A stretch of 41,088 nt of DNA from a virus (lineage: Duplodnaviria; Heunggongvirae; Uroviricota; Caudoviricetes). Below are positions 6,387 to 33,942 of this stretch, piece by piece; position 1 is the first letter of the stretch, and each line of letters opens with the position of its first letter. The notes below the pieces were generated by a model that searched no databases, had not been told where the DNA came from, and saw only the letters and a program-made list of their open reading frames with translations. The stretch is taken from positions 1 to 41,088 of IMG/VR virus record IMGVR_UViG_2579778622_000013; one strand, written 5' to 3'. The translations under genes were made by a program, and so were the position numbers.

Positions 6387-6401
6387 GTACCTCAAAGGTA
6401 A
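6387..6401. promoter_or_regulatory. Operator-like palindrome GTACCTCAAAGGTAA
   Basis: TTACC-N5-GGTAA family site directly after the terminator, upstream of the zinc-finger gene. Confidence 0.4.
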
Positions 6402-9298: not shown

Positions 9299-9981
9299 GC
9301 GAAATTAATTACCAGGCACTGCGTGAGGCGGCGGAACGTGCAATTCCAGCAATGGAACGCCTGTTAATGTTGCCAGCTGATGATGATTTGTTAAGTGAAC
9401 AGGAACTTAAAGATTACGGTGTGGATATTGATGCGCTCAACGCCTTCAAATTTCTGACCGGACCAGAAACCGTGCTGGCGCTGCTGGATGAACGGGAAAG
9501 AAACCAGCAATACATCAAACGCCGCGACCAGGAAAACGAGGATATTGCTCTTACTGTTGGGAAGCTGCGCGTTGAGCTGGAAGGCAAAGACAGCAAAATA
9601 GCCAATCTTACCGCCGAACGCGATGCTCTTCGTGAAGGTTGGATGGGCGACGCTAGGCATAGCAACACACGGGCCGCAGCTGATATCTACTTCCAACTGG
9701 TCGAGGAGTGCGAAATTCCTGCTGGCGGATCTCTGGTCGAGTACGTTGACGATATGCGCGAGAAGCTGGAAGCCGCAGAGAAGCGCATTGCAGAGTTAGA
9801 AAGTGGTTCTCAGGCACAAAAGTTAGTTGAAGCAATCATTGTTGCGATAGAAAACGAACAGGAAAGGCTTTTTGATGAAGATTACCTAATGGATTCGAAA
9901 GAATGCATTGACGTAATTCGTGAAGAAGTAAAGCGATGGAATGATTCCCGCGCTACTGGCATTCGCATCAAAGGAGAGTGA
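9295..9981 (+). CDS. Hypothetical coiled-coil protein
   Basis: GTG 9295 six nt after AAAGGAGG RBS, overlapping upstream stop; coiled-coil-like central region. Confidence 0.5.
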   Translation: MSEINYQALREAAERAIPAMERLLMLPADDDLLSEQELKDYGVDIDALNAFKFLTGPETVLALLDERERNQQYIKRRDQENEDIALTVGKLRVELEGKDSKIANLTAERDALREGWMGDARHSNTRAAADIYFQLVEECEIPAGGSLVEYVDDMREKLEAAEKRIAELESGSQAQKLVEAIIVAIENEQERLFDEDYLMDSKECIDVIREEVKRWNDSRATGIRIKGE

Positions 9982-11291: not shown

Positions 11292-11413
11292 TGAACAAGT
11301 GCAACGCTCTGCTTTATGCCATGGTGATTGGTTTCGGCCTGGCTGCTGGTATCCGGGTTTATATTACCTGGGAGTCATTAATCAATCTGGCGTGGAGTGC
11401 GATTCGTGGCTAA
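11291..11413 (+). CDS. Small hydrophobic membrane peptide (40 aa)
   Basis: ATG 11291 seven nt after AGGAGGTGA RBS; MNKCNALLYAMVIGFGLAAGIRVYITW...; not in ORF track (under 60 aa). Confidence 0.35.
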   Translation: MNKCNALLYAMVIGFGLAAGIRVYITWESLINLAWSAIRG

Positions 11414-11744
11414 ATCCCCCGCAGAACGCAAAGCCGCGCAGCGCGCTCGGCAGTCCGCCGCCGGTGAGCGCAAAATTGAACTGGTGCTGGATAAGCAGGA
11501 GCAGGAAATGCTGGAGCGTAACTGTGCCACGCGTCGCCCCGGGCGTGCGCCTTACGAATTTGGGGAGTATATAGCGTTACTGATCCGCCAGGATGATGCA
11601 CGCGTGCGCGGGCGTATAAAATCGATTAGCAGAAAACGTTGCGGTAAGTGCGGCGAGAAAGTTCCCGTTAATTCATGCCCGTGTAATGGTGACTCGCAAT
11701 GCTGGGTGACTAAAGGCTGGCATGAAACTAAATTAATAGTGTGA
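11397..11744 (+). CDS. Cys-rich putative regulatory protein, last gene before the late operon
   Basis: 115 aa; C-terminal RKRCGKCGEKVPVNSCPCNGDSQC zinc-finger-like cluster; start codon uncertain. Confidence 0.4.
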   Translation: MRFVAKSPAERKAAQRARQSAAGERKIELVLDKQEQEMLERNCATRRPGRAPYEFGEYIALLIRQDDARVRGRIKSISRKRCGKCGEKVPVNSCPCNGDSQCWVTKGWHETKLIV

Positions 11745-11793
11745 CATGTCACGAGTAGATTATGCATGATGAATTTGATGGGTTTTGAATACT

Positions 11794-11819
11794 GCCGCCA
11801 ACTATGGCGGCTTTATTTT
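11794..11819 (+). terminator. Rho-independent terminator preceding terminase operon
   Basis: 7-bp stem GCCGCCA/TGGCGGC, loop ACTA, then TTTATTTT. Confidence 0.6.
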
Positions 11820-11830
11820 GCATGGTACTA

Positions 11831-11845
11831 TTACCACAACGGTAA
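11831..11845. promoter_or_regulatory. Operator-like palindrome TTACCACAACGGTAA upstream of terminase small subunit
   Basis: Perfect dyad 18 nt upstream of terS RBS. Confidence 0.45.
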
Positions 11846-11862: not shown

Positions 11863-12459
11863 ATGATGCCTGCTGAACCTAAAACCTATAAACGCAAATC
11901 AACGCAATTTAAGCCACTAACCGCAATGCAGGAGGCTTATTGCCAGTCATACATCAAAACGCCTGAAAACCAGACTCAGGCAGCGATTAACGCAGGATTC
12001 TCCCCAAATACAGCGGCAGTTAAAGCCAGTGTCATGATGCGCGATGAACGCATTCAAAAACGGATTGCCGAGTTGATGGAGGAGCGCAACAAACGAATGC
12101 GCGTCAGTGCCGATTACGTTCTCATGCGCCTGGTGGAGATCGACCAGATGGACGTGATTGATATCCTCAATGACGATGGGAGCCTTAAGCCAATCCGCGA
12201 GTGGCCGAAAATCTGGCGCACTACGCTTAGTGGCTTTGATCTGTCATCGACCATCATGAACATGAACGAGGATTCGATAGAGACAATCCTCAAAAAAATT
12301 AAATGGCCTGACAAGGTGAAGAACCTCGAACTGATTGGTAAGCACGTCGACGTCAATGCATTCAAAGAACGCCTGGATGTTAATGTGAATGTGACAATTG
12401 CTGATCGCATAGCGGCAGCCAGGAAGCGACTCAAAGAACGTCAGGATGGTAATCAGTGA
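11863..12459 (+). CDS. Terminase small subunit
   Basis: HTH-type segment AINAGFSPNTAAVKASVMMRD typical of terminase small subunits; overlaps terL start (GTGA). Confidence 0.75.
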   Translation: MMPAEPKTYKRKSTQFKPLTAMQEAYCQSYIKTPENQTQAAINAGFSPNTAAVKASVMMRDERIQKRIAELMEERNKRMRVSADYVLMRLVEIDQMDVIDILNDDGSLKPIREWPKIWRTTLSGFDLSSTIMNMNEDSIETILKKIKWPDKVKNLELIGKHVDVNAFKERLDVNVNVTIADRIAAARKRLKERQDGNQ

Positions 12460-14968: not shown

Positions 14969-15045
14969 TGGCGTGGCATGCAGGATTCGAACCTGCGACC
15001 AACCGCTTAGAAGTCGGTTGCTCTGTCCAACTGAGCTAATGCCAC
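14969..15045 (-). tRNA. tRNA-Arg (anticodon UCU), phage-encoded argU-like
   Basis: 77 nt with CCA; cloverleaf GTGGCAT/ATGCCAC acceptor stem, D-arm GCTC..GAGC, anticodon loop CTTCTAA, T-arm GCAGG TTCGAAT CCTGC; similar but not identical to E. coli argU as recalled. Confidence 0.85.
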
Positions 15046-19416: not shown

Positions 19417-19854
19417 ATGATCACCGACAAACTGTTGATGTTCTCCGAAGCTCAGGCGGTTACGAATACCGCGGCTTCTACTGACGTAATCGATCTCGGT
19501 CCAATTGACGGAAAACGTCGTGATATCGGCGTGGGTTACCCGCTTGAGTTTTGGGCGCTGGTTAACGCAGCCGCCGCGGCAAGCGGTGATGCAACTGTAA
19601 ACATCCAGTTGCAGACGAGTGAGAATAACAGCTCATGGACCACTATTTATGATAGTGGCGCACTGGCAAAGACCGCCCTGACAGCAGGTAAACGAGTTGT
19701 TTCTGCAAAGGTGCCTGCCGGTGTTCAGCGATATCTGCGTGTTAACTACTCCGTCGCAACTGGCCCACTAACGGCTGGCAAATTCACTGCGGGTATCAGT
19801 CTGGATGTTGATGCCAATACGCCGTACCCGATCCGCTCAAAAGTAACTGGTTAA
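19417..19854 (+). CDS. Capsid-associated (decoration-like) protein
   Basis: 145 aa, Ala/Thr/Gly-rich, directly after capsid gene; GGAGA RBS. Confidence 0.45.
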   Translation: MITDKLLMFSEAQAVTNTAASTDVIDLGPIDGKRRDIGVGYPLEFWALVNAAAAASGDATVNIQLQTSENNSSWTTIYDSGALAKTALTAGKRVVSAKVPAGVQRYLRVNYSVATGPLTAGKFTAGISLDVDANTPYPIRSKVTG

Positions 19855-19864
19855 GGTGATATCG

Positions 19865-20200
19865 ATGTCAGGTGAGAAACCAAGATACCGCGTTCTGCGC
19901 CTCTCTCATATCCATAACACTCTGTGGCCGGAGGGGGCAGAAATCGAATACGAAGGTGAGCCTGGTAGCGCACTGGAACCTGTTAACGATGCAGCCAGAC
20001 AGGCAAAAGCAAAAGTTGCAGGAAAGGTGTCAATGGCAGCAACCAGCACCAAAATCATCAACGATGTGTCAGATGATGGTGAACTGGATAAGCTCCGTGA
20101 AGAGTACGAATTGCTCTTTAACGAGAAGCCACACCATAACGCCAAAGCCGAAACTCTCCGCGAGAAGATCGCAGATAAGCGTAAAGAACTGGGCGTGTAA
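19865..20200 (+). CDS. Hypothetical virion-module protein
   Basis: ATG 19865 five nt after TAAGGTGA RBS. Confidence 0.5.
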   Translation: MSGEKPRYRVLRLSHIHNTLWPEGAEIEYEGEPGSALEPVNDAARQAKAKVAGKVSMAATSTKIINDVSDDGELDKLREEYELLFNEKPHHNAKAETLREKIADKRKELGV

Positions 20201-28689: not shown

Positions 28690-31164
28690 ATGAGACAGGA
28701 ATGTATACAAGCGGTCCAGCAGGCGGCGCAGCGCACGTTAACGGCGCGAGAAATACAGAACATTGAAGACCGCATTTATCGAAATATGCGCTCTATTGCT
28801 CGTGATGACCCGATGTCGTGGAGACAACTTTCCGAATCAGAGCGGCTATATCGTGCAGCACAATTGGCATCTGAAGAATTACAGCGAGAAGCGGCATTAA
28901 AGAAACGTCGTGTGGCCCTCACTATAGCCGCACGTCAGAGATTGGATAAATTTATCAATAGCTATCAAGGGGCTGATGGGAAACTTGGCGCTCTTAACCG
29001 TACTATTGCTTTTAATGCAGACGGTAAATCGAATTTCCTCTCTGTTGAATCCAGAACAAAAGCCACCCGTGATTATGCATTGAGTCAATTGCAGGAGGCA
29101 TTCGAAGCAGTTGATCCTCGCTTTTTTGGTCTGTTTGAAGATGAAGCTGGCGTACGTGACCTGGTATATGAAATGCGGGGGCAAAATACTGGCAATGCTA
29201 AAGCAAGAAAAGGTGCTAAGGCGTGGAGAGAAGTTACAGAGCTGCTGCGCCGCCGGTTTAATGATGCTGGTGGGGACATTGGCTATCTCGAAAACTGGGG
29301 GATCCCTCAACATCATTCTATGGAAAAGGTTGGGGCGGTATCAAAAGATAAATGGGTTAGCGATGTTATAGGTAAGCTGGATCGCAAATATTATACCCGA
29401 GCCGATGGACAACTGATGAACGATGCCGAGTTGTCTGCATTTCTTGGAGAGGCTTATAACACGATCGCTACTGGTGGGTTGAATAAGCTTACTGATACCG
29501 GAATGCGAATTTCCGGCGCACGTGCTAACCGTGGTAATGCATCACGACAGATACATTTCAAAGATGCAGATTCCTATCTTCAATATCAGCAACTTTATGG
29601 CGATCGCTCTCTATGGGAAATCATGGTCGGTCACCTGGAAGGTATCAGTAAAGATATTGCACTGGTGGAAACATATGGCCCAAACCCCGATCATGTTTTC
29701 CGCTCTCTTCTTGATCAGGTGAAGGCAGAAACGGCAACAGCTAACCCGAGTAAAACCGGTAAAGTCGAGCGGCTGGCGAACAACACAGAGAATCTGTACA
29801 ACTTTATTTCCGGAAAGACACAGCCTGTAGCGAATCCGCACATCGCGCGATGGTCTGACAATATCCGCAACTGGCTGGTTGCCAGCAGACTCGGATCCGC
29901 GTTGCTGTCATCGTTCTCTGATCTTGGAACCATGTATCTGTCTGCGAAGGTTACCAACCTTCCAATGAACCAGTTATTCCGCAACCAGCTTGAAGCTATG
30001 GACCCAACGAACCGTACAGAACTTGCGCGGGCGCGCCGCGCTGGTCTGGCGATGGAATCTCTACTTGGCAGCGTTAACCGCTGGGCGATGGATAATATGG
30101 GGCCGTCTGTGTCTCGTTGGGCTGCAACGGCGGTAATGCGTGCCAGTGGGCTTACAGCATGGTCAGATGCGCACAAGCGCGCCTATGGCGTAACCATGAT
30201 GGGAAGCTTGGGAGAAGTAGTGTCACGGACACCAGACCTTCGTAGCCTCGATGATTCTGATTTTCGTATCCTGAAAAGCAAAGGGATTACTGACACAGAC
30301 TGGAGCGTATGGAAGCTGGCGCAACAGGAGGACTGGGGGAACGGCAATAATACGATGCTGACACCGGAAAGCATTATGCGTATCCCTGATTCAGCAGTTA
30401 AACATCTTGGTGAGCCTGAACGCGTGAAATTTGAGGCAATGCGTAAACTGCTCGGTGCCGTAACTGAAGAAGTTGATATGGCTGTTATTACACCGGGAGC
30501 ACGTGAGCAACTGATAACCGGTTCTGGTATTCAGCGTGGAACATGGAAAGGTGAATTAACGAGAAGTGTTTTCCTGTTTAAATCGTTCCCTATCTCGGTG
30601 GTTATGCGTCACTGGTCACGCGCTATGGGTATGCCGTCTGCTGGTGGGCGTGCGGCATATATTGCGACGTTTATTGCCAGTACGACCATTCTTGGCGCTT
30701 TGTCGCAGCAACTTAACGACCTTGCGTCTGGTCGTAATCCTCGCGAGATGACAGGAGAAGATGCTGCTAAATTTTGGCTTGGTGCTCTACTGAAAGGTGG
30801 TGGTCTTGGCCTTTACGGTGACTTTTTATTGTCAGATCACACTAGGTACGGAAGCGGCGCGCTGGCGTCGATGCTTGGCCCGGTAGCTGGTCTGGTTGAT
30901 GACGTAGTGAAGATTGCTCAGGGCATACCGTTAAATGCTGTGGAAGGGAAGAGTGAGCAGACTGGTGGTGATCTGGTGAAGCTGGGGAAAGGTTTGATGC
31001 CTGGTGCGAATCTCTGGTACTTGAAGGCGGCTCTCGATCACATGATCTTTAACCAGATGCAGGAGTATTTTTCACCAGGCTATTTGCGTAAAATGGAGCA
31101 ACGTTCGAAGAAAGAGTTTAACCAGACATACTGGTGGCGACCACAGGATGTCACTCCGCAATAA
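28690..31164 (+). CDS. Internal virion / ejection protein (gp16 C-part-like by position)
   Basis: 824 aa. Confidence 0.55.
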   Translation: MRQECIQAVQQAAQRTLTAREIQNIEDRIYRNMRSIARDDPMSWRQLSESERLYRAAQLASEELQREAALKKRRVALTIAARQRLDKFINSYQGADGKLGALNRTIAFNADGKSNFLSVESRTKATRDYALSQLQEAFEAVDPRFFGLFEDEAGVRDLVYEMRGQNTGNAKARKGAKAWREVTELLRRRFNDAGGDIGYLENWGIPQHHSMEKVGAVSKDKWVSDVIGKLDRKYYTRADGQLMNDAELSAFLGEAYNTIATGGLNKLTDTGMRISGARANRGNASRQIHFKDADSYLQYQQLYGDRSLWEIMVGHLEGISKDIALVETYGPNPDHVFRSLLDQVKAETATANPSKTGKVERLANNTENLYNFISGKTQPVANPHIARWSDNIRNWLVASRLGSALLSSFSDLGTMYLSAKVTNLPMNQLFRNQLEAMDPTNRTELARARRAGLAMESLLGSVNRWAMDNMGPSVSRWAATAVMRASGLTAWSDAHKRAYGVTMMGSLGEVVSRTPDLRSLDDSDFRILKSKGITDTDWSVWKLAQQEDWGNGNNTMLTPESIMRIPDSAVKHLGEPERVKFEAMRKLLGAVTEEVDMAVITPGAREQLITGSGIQRGTWKGELTRSVFLFKSFPISVVMRHWSRAMGMPSAGGRAAYIATFIASTTILGALSQQLNDLASGRNPREMTGEDAAKFWLGALLKGGGLGLYGDFLLSDHTRYGSGALASMLGPVAGLVDDVVKIAQGIPLNAVEGKSEQTGGDLVKLGKGLMPGANLWYLKAALDHMIFNQMQEYFSPGYLRKMEQRSKKEFNQTYWWRPQDVTPQ

Positions 31165-31175
31165 AAGGAGATATG

Positions 31176-31298
31176 ATGGTTCAAATAACTTTTATTGTAC
31201 TAATATGTGCAGCGTTTTTATGCTATTCATACATTTTGATAAAAATGGGTTTCAATTGGAATCTCTGTTGCGTGCAGCGGCATGGTTCGGCTTTGTAG
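31176..31298 (+). CDS. Small hydrophobic peptide (40 aa)
   Basis: ATG 31176 five nt after AAGGAG; MVQITFIVLICAAFLCYSYILIK...; AT-rich; different frame from ORF-track entry 31148..31336. Confidence 0.35.
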   Translation: MVQITFIVLICAAFLCYSYILIKMGFNWNLCCVQRHGSAL

Positions 31299-31383
31299 TA
31301 TTCGGAATTGTATTGTTCGGAAGAATAATAAAATAACTAGTTAATTTGTGGATTGGTGCTGTTTTTCCATGATAGGGGTAATT

Positions 31384-31764
31384 ATGAGAAAAGTATTTTT
31401 GATTTTTGGATTTATGCTTCTCGTTGGATGCCAGTCAGCTGCACAGTTTGAAAGAAATATGCTTACGTGGCGCGGGCAGAGTATAGACGCAATGGTTCAG
31501 CAGTGGGGGTATCCTCAGGGAGAGCTTACATCTCCAGATGGAAACAGAGTGTATGTTTACTCAAGCTCTGGTAGTTATAACGTACCACAAACCACAACGT
31601 ATAATACTACGTCTAATCTAATTGGTAATACTATATATTCAAACACATACGCAACAACTGATGGCGGTTATACACTCCATTTCAGTTGCTCTGTTTACGT
31701 TGAGTTTGGTGCTGATAAGATTATTAAAAATGTTACATGGCGCGGTAATAATTGCGTTGCGTGA
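31384..31764 (+). CDS. Moron lipoprotein (signal peptide plus lipobox LLVGC)
   Basis: MRKVFLIFGFMLLVGCQS...; Ser/Thr/Tyr/Asn-rich mature part; AT-rich. Confidence 0.6.
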   Translation: MRKVFLIFGFMLLVGCQSAAQFERNMLTWRGQSIDAMVQQWGYPQGELTSPDGNRVYVYSSSGSYNVPQTTTYNTTSNLIGNTIYSNTYATTDGGYTLHFSCSVYVEFGADKIIKNVTWRGNNCVA

Positions 31765-31772
31765 CATGTCAC

Positions 31773-31797
31773 AGGCCGCTTTCGCGGCCTTGTTTTT
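31773..31797 (+). terminator. Rho-independent terminator after lipoprotein gene
   Basis: Stem AGGCCGC/GCGGCCT, loop TTTC, then TGTTTTT. Confidence 0.6.
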
Positions 31798-33545: not shown

Positions 33546-33942
33546 GGTGGTTATCTCCACTTAGTGATTTTAATCACCACCGCAACGCCAATTACTGGTG
33601 GTGAACTGGACAAGGTTGGCGTACCGGCCTAAGTGGTACCGGCGTCCTTTCGGACCCCTGCCCAGCCCACCATAATTCGGATATAGCTGTGCTTAACGCA
33701 TAAAAAAACCACGTCTGGCGTGGTATGCGCCACTTAGTAACTCGGGACGCCAATCCCGGCACTGGATTTTGCCAGTACCCGATTACTATGGCACAAGAGG
33801 AGTGCGATGTAAATTTACCGCAAAGGTAATGATAAACGCGTAGAAATATCAAAATCAACCGTATTTGGTTGATTGCGTTTAACGCTTGATCACCTGAAAG
33901 CAAGATATTACCTTTAAGGTAATGTTATTGTGAGGAAAAGCA
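33546..33942. promoter_or_regulatory. Divergent control region and long antirepressor leader
   Basis: Dyads at 33815-33829 and 33908-33922; minus-strand intrinsic terminator 33702-33724; palindrome GTGATTTTAATCAC at 33564-33577; three mutually complementary 9-mers. Confidence 0.45.

Follow-up and report, generated by a model that had tools for sequence, protein, structure and literature searches.

The matS sequence is the site of MatP and defines the Ter macrodomain of the Escherichia coli chromosome. It fits the pattern GTGAC[AG]N[TC]GTCAC, for which the E. coli consensus is GTGACATTGTCAC (PMC3603311, PMC8669397). MatP contacts matS through a central ribbon-helix-helix (RHH) fold and an N-terminal helical bundle. 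True matS occurs in none of the approximately 500 prophages studied by Bobay et al., who argue for counter-selection. The window analyzed here, the whole 41,088-nucleotide stretch of the tailed-phage record IMGVR_UViG_2579778622_000013, carries a short dyad, GTGACATGTCAC, that equals the matS consensus minus one central T. The dyad has the architecture GTGAC-N2-GTCAC, with AT at its center, and is 12 bp long. It occurs twice in the window, at 11741-11752 and 31761-31772, and there is no further site even when one mismatch is allowed. In copy 1, the TGA at 11742-11744 is the stop codon of a gene for a cysteine-rich protein with predicted RHH and zinc-ribbon domains (open reading frame (ORF) 11397-11744). 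In copy 2, the TGA at 31762-31764 is the stop codon of a moron lipoprotein gene (ORF 31348-31764). Comparison with other phages suggests, with slightly better than even confidence, that the dyad is the protein-binding site of a dimer of the RHH/zinc-ribbon protein encoded upstream of copy 1 and that it acts at operon boundaries.

The RHH repressors, which include P22 Arc and Mnt, CopG and the MazE, ParD and TacA antitoxins, share with this arrangement a short symmetric site near the protein's own gene. The phage dyad differs from their operators in its position, which is at the 3' end of the gene over the stop codon and not in the promoter, and in the presence of extra copies at the ends of other operons. 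The C-terminal partner of the RHH domain also differs; it is a cysteine-rich zinc ribbon with weak TraR/DksA-type similarity and not a toxin-binding tail. In mycobacteriophage L5, as Brown et al. reportedly described in 1997, short repressor-type sites named stoperators lie in tiny intergenic gaps, often on stop codons, and were proposed to halt elongating RNA polymerase. Stoperators are said to be asymmetric and orientation-dependent, to number about 20-30 per genome and to be bound by the immunity repressor. The phage dyad, in contrast, is symmetric and present in two to three copies, and the immunity repressor operators are a different dyad.

The occurrence of the dyad follows that of the cysteine-rich gene. 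Homologues of this gene are found in 151 of 50,697 phage records, with hosts in Vibrio, Escherichia, Klebsiella, Salmonella, Yersinia, Aeromonas, Enterobacter, Pectobacterium, Citrobacter and Pantoea. In nine genomes picked for carrying a homologue, GTGAC-N2-GTCAC occurs 20 times (0.35 expected), and the N1, N3 and N4 spacings occur zero, one and zero times. A set of 49 N15-like loci (883 kb) contains 105 N2 sites, against 0.84 expected, and the N1, N3 and N4 spacings are absent from it. The N2 dyad is thus enriched 60- to 125-fold in gene-encoding genomes, and the other spacings are not enriched. The control set comprised 81 loci that surround lambda-type large terminase genes and total 1.50 Mb. 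In this set the N2 motif occurs three times, solely in the three loci that encode a homologue, all of them N15-like, and each time at the homologue's stop codon. The 78 lambda-type loci without the gene contain no N2 motif. The N1 spacing, GTGAC-N1-GTCAC, is seen 41 times across the control loci, and lambda itself has it at 9747 and 19010; presumably these 41 occurrences are one conserved coding position repeated across near-identical lambda-type loci.

The position of the dyad relative to the gene is also conserved. The TGA of the motif is the homologue's stop codon in the window, phiV10, epsilon15, SPN1S, AH07 and 46 of the 49 N15-like loci. These 46 share an identical register, and in all 49 the dyad is on or just past the stop codon. 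The linear plasmid prophage N15 has GTGACTGGTCAC on the gp46 stop codon and two further copies of that 12-mer. The myovirus AH07 has GTGACAGGTCAC on the gene's stop codon and one exact copy elsewhere, and the myovirus ZF40 has three exact dyads, one of which is 2 nt past the gene's stop codon. When the gene ends of five lineages are aligned, GTGAC..GTCAC alone is invariant. In a scan for repeated 5-N-5 dyads, the GTGAC dyad is at or near the top in epsilon15, SPN1S, ZF40, N15, AH07 and Vibrio phage K233; the same scan recovers the annotated repressor operators of epsilon15, which served as a positive control. Judging from this distribution, gene and site move together across podo-, sipho- and myoviruses. 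The comparisons establish a real site that is strictly selected, spacing-specific and in genetic linkage with the gene. From the co-occurrence of gene and site we infer that this protein is the binder; the consequence of binding is likewise inferred.

The repeat could also be a chance event without function. Within the window, the statistics for the repeat are weak. There are 11 perfect 12-bp palindromes (11.2 in shuffled sequences), which is the chance number, and 232 12-mers of any kind are present two or more times, which makes an exact repeat of this length unremarkable on its own. A repeated 12-bp palindrome appears in 43 of 2000 dinucleotide-preserving shuffles (2.2%), and this figure is weakened further by the post-hoc choice of the motif by an earlier reader. 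Chance does not explain the exact conservation in diverged phages, the strength and strict spacing of the enrichment, or the perfect co-occurrence with one gene family. A function beyond chance is supported because the site is conserved in relatives and GTGAC-N2-GTCAC is enriched genome-wide; on these comparative data the chance explanation is already refuted and retains practically no probability. The original prediction had held that an exact palindrome repeat was unlikely by chance. That view holds when the comparative data carry it; the within-window odds are only mildly improbable.

By megablast, the window groups with the phiV10/epsilon15-like temperate podoviruses of the genus Uetakevirus. 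Copy 1 of the dyad, here site 1, ends the gene that comes last in the early-right operon, ahead of a terminator and terS. In all 79 IMG/VR relatives that reach this site, the stop codon of the cysteine-rich gene lies in the exact 12-mer, and both flanks vary. Intrinsic terminator 1 (11794-11819, plus strand) consists of GCCGCC-AACT-ATGGCGGC followed by a T-run, with the hairpin at 11794-11811 and the T-run reaching 11819. It begins 41 nt past the dyad and closes the early-right operon upstream of terS, and its counterpart is annotated as a terminator in the epsilon15 record. In 24 of 80 relatives, an ORF of about 70 aa (MPKIRYDLEDMRDN...DEFDGL) lies between the dyad and the terminator; one such ORF is at 1859-2083 of its locus. 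Comparison with these relatives identifies an eight-codon remnant of the gene in the window, MHDEFDGF-stop, at 11762-11788 on the plus strand. Because this ORF separates the two elements in 24 of 80 loci, the dyad is tied to the gene end and not to terminator 1. Cassette insertion at site 1 was considered and rejected; the 186-bp difference that distinguishes the 24 relatives is an internal deletion of the small ORF and not a cassette abutting the dyad. The terS start annotated in phiV10 is a TTG (window 11785), which would put terminator 1 inside the coding region. An ATG at 11866 behind GGTGG is the more plausible start, and the Pfam Terminase_2 match starts at residue 18 counted from it.

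The phiV10 genome (NC_007804.2) has a one-base variant, GTGACATGTTAC, at site 1, and none of the 79 IMG/VR relatives shows this variant. The phiV10 record is linearized inside the dyad, so that it ends in ...GTGA and starts with CATGTTAC.... A cos or pac genome end at this position was rejected, as the record is merely linearized past the stop codon of its last gene and terL belongs to the headful type.

Epsilon15 and SPN1S are more distant Uetakeviruses: their terS is approximately 80% identical to that of the window, and they have other terminators and other flanks. Both have the exact 12-mer at both homologous positions, at site 2 with a different terminator sequence. Both also have a third exact dyad (at 2142 in epsilon15 and 2174 in SPN1S), which lies between terL and a convergent moron, 3-4 nt before the moron's terminator. 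A decayed dyad is present on the Rz stop codon of epsilon15 (26618) and SPN1S (26722), with 10 and 11 of 12 matches, respectively. The window contains neither the third dyad nor the Rz copy, and a 296-aa minus-strand gene overlaps the terL stop codon there. In the epsilon15 record, the annotation covers sites for repressor, IHF, RNase III and integrase and leaves the three motif positions blank. The exact 12-mer was not found in the searchable literature; the repeat may have been noticed earlier, in the epsilon15 genome paper.

Copy 2 of the dyad, site 2, marks where the long structural operon ends; a variable moron precedes it and a convergent gene lies opposite. Intrinsic terminator 2 (31773-31797, plus strand; AGGCCGC-TTTC-GCGGCCT followed by a T-run, hairpin 31773-31790, T-run to 31797) abuts the dyad at a distance of 0 nt. 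It closes the structural operon, faces the convergent minus-strand gene that ends at 31796 and is annotated as a terminator in phiV10. Among 80 loci that share terminator 2, 72 have the exact dyad directly upstream of it; in the full set the count is 101 of 119. At every Uetakevirus site, an intrinsic terminator follows the dyad at a distance of 0-41 nt, on the strand of the T-run. The original prediction had described one palindrome at 11741 and 31761, with its TGA as the stop codon both times and terminators 41 nt and 0 nt downstream, and every one of these coordinates is correct. It had also proposed a shared cis element; the motif is present at the homologous positions in related phages, and its retention in essentially all of them bears this proposal out.

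The region between the structural genes and site 2 is a variable moron cassette (31165-31759, plus strand), whose left edge is the stop codon of the gene for an 824-aa virion protein (31164) and whose right edge is the dyad. In the window, the cassette contains a 62-aa ORF and the lipoprotein gene (31384-31764; lipobox LLVGC; PHROG 3716). At least eight unrelated cassettes abut the site 2 dyad, with ORFs that stop at +1, which is the dyad's own TGA, in three types, or at -4, -6 or -10. In eight dyad-carrying cassette types, homology to the window ends at 31164 and returns at 31756-31760. This sharp boundary, the way in which unrelated cassettes of at least eight types end 0-10 nt from the dyad, and the presence of the motif at the 3' edge of the cysteine-rich gene in otherwise unrelated genomes are what would be expected if the dyad were mainly a short junction or recombination block, placed where exchangeable genes end and guiding moron swaps. 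There is, however, no associated recombinase, and the left cassette boundary has no matching element, just the stop codon of the 824-aa gene. The copies in ZF40, N15 and AH07 include some inside coding regions, where no exchange is seen. A constrained site beside a hypervariable locus would give the same sharp boundary, with 12 bp plus the terminator as incidental homology. A primary role in recombination is therefore rated as improbable. The module boundary suggested by the original prediction is an apt description of site 2, with its variable segment at 31165-31759 and at least eight cassette types; as a function it is less convincing, since the boundary is the likelier consequence of a constrained site.

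The dyad could alternatively work as RNA, as a 3'-end hairpin or protein-binding motif that affects termination, read-through, stop-codon decoding or stability. In transcripts, it always forms the final bases of a gene. In the Uetakeviruses it directly precedes terminator hairpins, where minimum free energy folds draw it as a separate 4-bp stem, and its variable central bases would fall in the loop. The hairpin, however, has a folding energy of -1.2 kcal/mol, equal to that of shuffled controls. No lineage has a compensatory change in the arms, which are always GTGAC and GTCAC, and no Rfam family covers the dyad. In ZF40, N15 and AH07, some dyads are inside ORFs, and dyads stand in both orientations to the genes. 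The protein linked to the dyad has a predicted DNA-binding fold. As an intrinsic terminator in its own right, the dyad lacks a T-run and has the same weak fold. An action as RNA is given still less weight than one in recombination. The antitermination hairpin among the mechanisms proposed in the original prediction is not supported, given the same folding energy and absence of covariation, and the dyad has no terminator adjacency outside the Uetakeviruses. Of the three mechanisms that it named, a protein-binding site is the best supported, through the linkage of gene and motif in at least five phage lineages. The cysteine-rich protein (11397-11744), which it named as a candidate binder, is the product of the linked gene. 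The near-identity to matS and the presence of the motif in unrelated phages are additions to that prediction.

The candidate binder of the dyad is a 112-aa protein (11406-11744, plus strand) of the epsilon15 gp49/N15 gp46 family, PHROG 536, which is labeled 'transcriptional regulator'. The family contains 185 clusters at 50% identity among 1.84 billion representatives. Its predicted layout is a basic N-terminal helix, an RHH domain and a C-terminal zinc ribbon. Pfam scans of the protein return no family at any useful threshold. The NCBIfam YbfE model ('LexA regulated protein', CopG-type) is matched by 21 of 58 family members, with a best E-value of 1.5e-5. An AlphaFold2 model from a diverse 58-sequence alignment has a pLDDT of 92.3 and consists of a helix (5-19), an extended segment (20-29), two helices (30-42 and 52-74), a cysteine-rich knuckle and a final helix (100-107). 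In this model the strand-helix-helix order of the RHH fold is present. An earlier model from a shallow 23-sequence alignment was discarded; it had a pLDDT of 62.6 and Foldseek returned only noise. C79 and C82 are invariant, and C99 is nearly so; the basic N-terminal helix contributes two more nearly invariant residues, R8 and R13. The strand that would read the DNA differs among lineages, and so do the two central bases of the dyad. This pattern is consistent with the arms being read by the conserved arginines and the center by the strand.

The C-terminal half of the protein has weak similarity to F TraR (hhalign probability 47%, E 1.9e-4, 59 columns). TraR and YbiI are at the top of a profile search of the PDB, with E-values of approximately 0.03, and the DksA/TraR-type models PRK11019, PRK13715 and TIGR02419 match 6 of 58 members. 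DksA/TraR proteins have a CxxC-N17-CxxC zinc finger that follows a long helix; in the phage family, the fourth zinc ligand is off the TraR position. The acidic DxxDxA tip of DksA/TraR, which reaches into the active site of RNA polymerase, is not in the sequence of the cysteine-rich protein, and the equivalent helix start is joined to the RHH domain in the model. No characterized member of the family was found in the searchable literature. A 'gp46' reported by proteomics as expressed in the lysogen of a telomere phage was set aside, as it is that phage's cB repressor and not a homologue of N15 gp46.

The dyad and matS have identical GTGAC/GTCAC arms, and in both systems there are few, dispersed sites per replicon. 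They differ in length and spacing, as the phage dyad is 12 bp with a strict N2 and matS is 13 bp. They also differ in location: the phage sites are at gene ends on phage genomes and matS is in the chromosomal Ter region. The phage protein, in its predicted structure, has neither the four-helix bundle nor the C-terminal coiled coil and has a zinc ribbon instead. No sequence homology to MatP was detected (hhalign probability 0.2%, BLASTP E 13). The window, epsilon15, SPN1S, ZF40, N15 and AH07 contain no N3 (13-bp, matS-type) sites. In Vibrio phage K233, a 13-mer at 19491, GTGACACCGTCAC, fits the true matS consensus and is found beside three 12-bp dyads. By the tests applied, the dyad and its putative binder are not members of the MatP/matS family but a look-alike pair of RHH protein and dyad. 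It is doubtful, though conceivable, that the pair is a phage counterpart of MatP/matS, kept off-register by design (12 as opposed to 13 bp). If so, phages of γ-proteobacteria that have MatP and MukBEF would organize or bridge their own DNA, or disturb SMC-type or MatP-dependent processes of the host, without being read as matS.

A host protein, most obviously MatP itself, may instead bind the dyad as a matS-like link to chromosome organization (MatP, MukBEF, ZapB), with the phage protein as competitor, partner or specificity modifier. The arms are those of matS with one central T fewer. The hosts of the gene-bearing phages all belong to the Enterobacterales, Vibrionales or Aeromonadales, and MatP is itself an RHH protein. 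MatP is also present in Vibrio. According to a published abstract, MatP is confined to enteric bacteria. The spacing is strictly N2 and not N3, however, and a rigid dimer is usually intolerant of a 1-bp change in spacing. The motif tracks the phage gene and not the host, as none is present in the 78 E. coli lambda-type loci, and prophages are reported to avoid true matS. Binding by MatP is accordingly considered unlikely, to about the same degree as a phage counterpart of the system. Among known host operators (CRP, LexA, the SlmA box and others), we know of none that matches the arms together with the spacing.

The preferred explanation remains an operator of the linked protein. A dimer of the 11406-11744 product would sit across the two GTGAC arms. 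On this view, phages with the gene keep one site on or beside its stop codon, together with one or two others in the rest of the genome. All sites of the Uetakeviruses mark the 3' ends of transcription units, namely the end of the early-right operon and the end of the structural operon and moron, with an added site at the convergent junction after terL in the Salmonella relatives. The bound protein would act on RNA polymerase at these operon boundaries, through insulation, a roadblock or the tuning of read-through, and would limit transcription across the end of its own gene. Control of polymerase traffic is the most economical function because every Uetakevirus copy precedes an intrinsic terminator at the 3' end of a unit. 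This operon-boundary step is weakly supported, and a non-transcriptional role, such as MatP-like bridging or organization of DNA, is possible.

Several observations weigh against this explanation. The genomes of the census were selected by the gene, and the control loci are sequence-redundant. Vibrio phage K233 has three dyads, none of which is at the gene end. A Yersinia P2-like phage has two adjacent copies, one exact and one with one mismatch, that are not at the gene end, and Aeromonas phage 85AhydR10PP has no dyad despite a 32%-identical homologue. At site 2, seven loci keep terminator 2 with CAGTGATCAAAC (in one locus CAGTTATCAAAC) in place of the dyad. In these loci a 285-aa ORF extends to the terminator, and at least one such contig retains the cysteine-rich gene with its own dyad. 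A terminator-coupled role is at most lineage-specific, because the adjacency of dyad and terminator fails outside the Uetakeviruses, is broken at site 1 by the inserted ORF in 24 of 80 relatives and is dispensable in the site 2 variant. In addition, a roadblock at the stop codon would cut short the mRNA of the upstream gene, which fits the moron poorly.

The position of a candidate operator on stop codons and ahead of terminators, the co-mobility of gene and site, and the near-identity to matS are unusual. The dyad offers a candidate function and a precise DNA target for the PHROG 536 family, which has no experimentally established function and is found in temperate phages whose hosts are E. 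coli O157, Salmonella, Klebsiella, Yersinia, Vibrio and plant pathogens. It is also a strictly conserved landmark at the operon ends and the moron-exchange locus of phiV10/epsilon15-like prophages. The one-base gap from matS, together with a predicted RHH binder, raises the question of whether these phages have a MatP-like system of their own or avoid or exploit that of the host.

The arrangement at site 1 also resembles the Q/QBE-pR'-tR' region of lambda. The cysteine-rich gene is the last of the early-right operon, directly before a terminator and the late genes. At site 1 only, there is a weak promoter-like match with the dyad as its -35 element (GTGACA-18-CATGAT, 9/12); the scan returns fewer matches than in shuffled sequences. 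In contrast to lambda, there is no promoter match at site 2 and no homology to Q proteins, and the epsilon15 repressor operators, and hence separate promoters, are annotated ahead of the late operons. A Q-like late switch does not appear to fit site 2.

In N15, a second palindrome, GCGACC-N2-GGTCGC, has four dispersed copies (33481, 35932, 41126 and 45563). These may correspond to the dispersed SopB centromere sites. The SopB sites and the GTGAC dyad are alike in that a few copies of one palindrome are spread across a phage genome for one phage protein, SopB in the one case and the proposed RHH/zinc-ribbon binder in the other. They differ in that no ParA/ParB partner is linked to the GTGAC dyad, and most of its carriers are integrating prophages with no need for partition.

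The window contains a further dyad, TACCT-N3-AGGTA, in four copies at 6388, 14752, 15369 and 33909. This sequence lies within two binding sites annotated as 'repressor' in epsilon15 (2931-2947 and 19895-19911), and the copies in the window are likely immunity repressor operators ahead of the late operons. The annotated repressor-binding site at 12-27 of epsilon15 has a homologue in the window, a TTACC-N5-GGTAA sequence at 11831-11845 that separates terminator 1 from terS; a related GGTA..TACC dyad is just upstream of this sequence.

In a scan of the window with Rfam, only a tRNA, C4 antisense RNA and isrK reach the gathering score, and none of them is near either GTGAC dyad. The tRNA-Arg (anticodon tct; 14969-15045, minus strand) is between the minus-strand moron that follows terL and the portal operon. 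The C4 antisense RNA (33594-33677, minus strand, 66 bits) and isrK (33702-33778, minus strand, 63.5 bits) are beside a Bro/antirepressor-type region upstream of the tail-fiber gene, which suggests an RNA-controlled antirepressor module in the style of P1 and P7.

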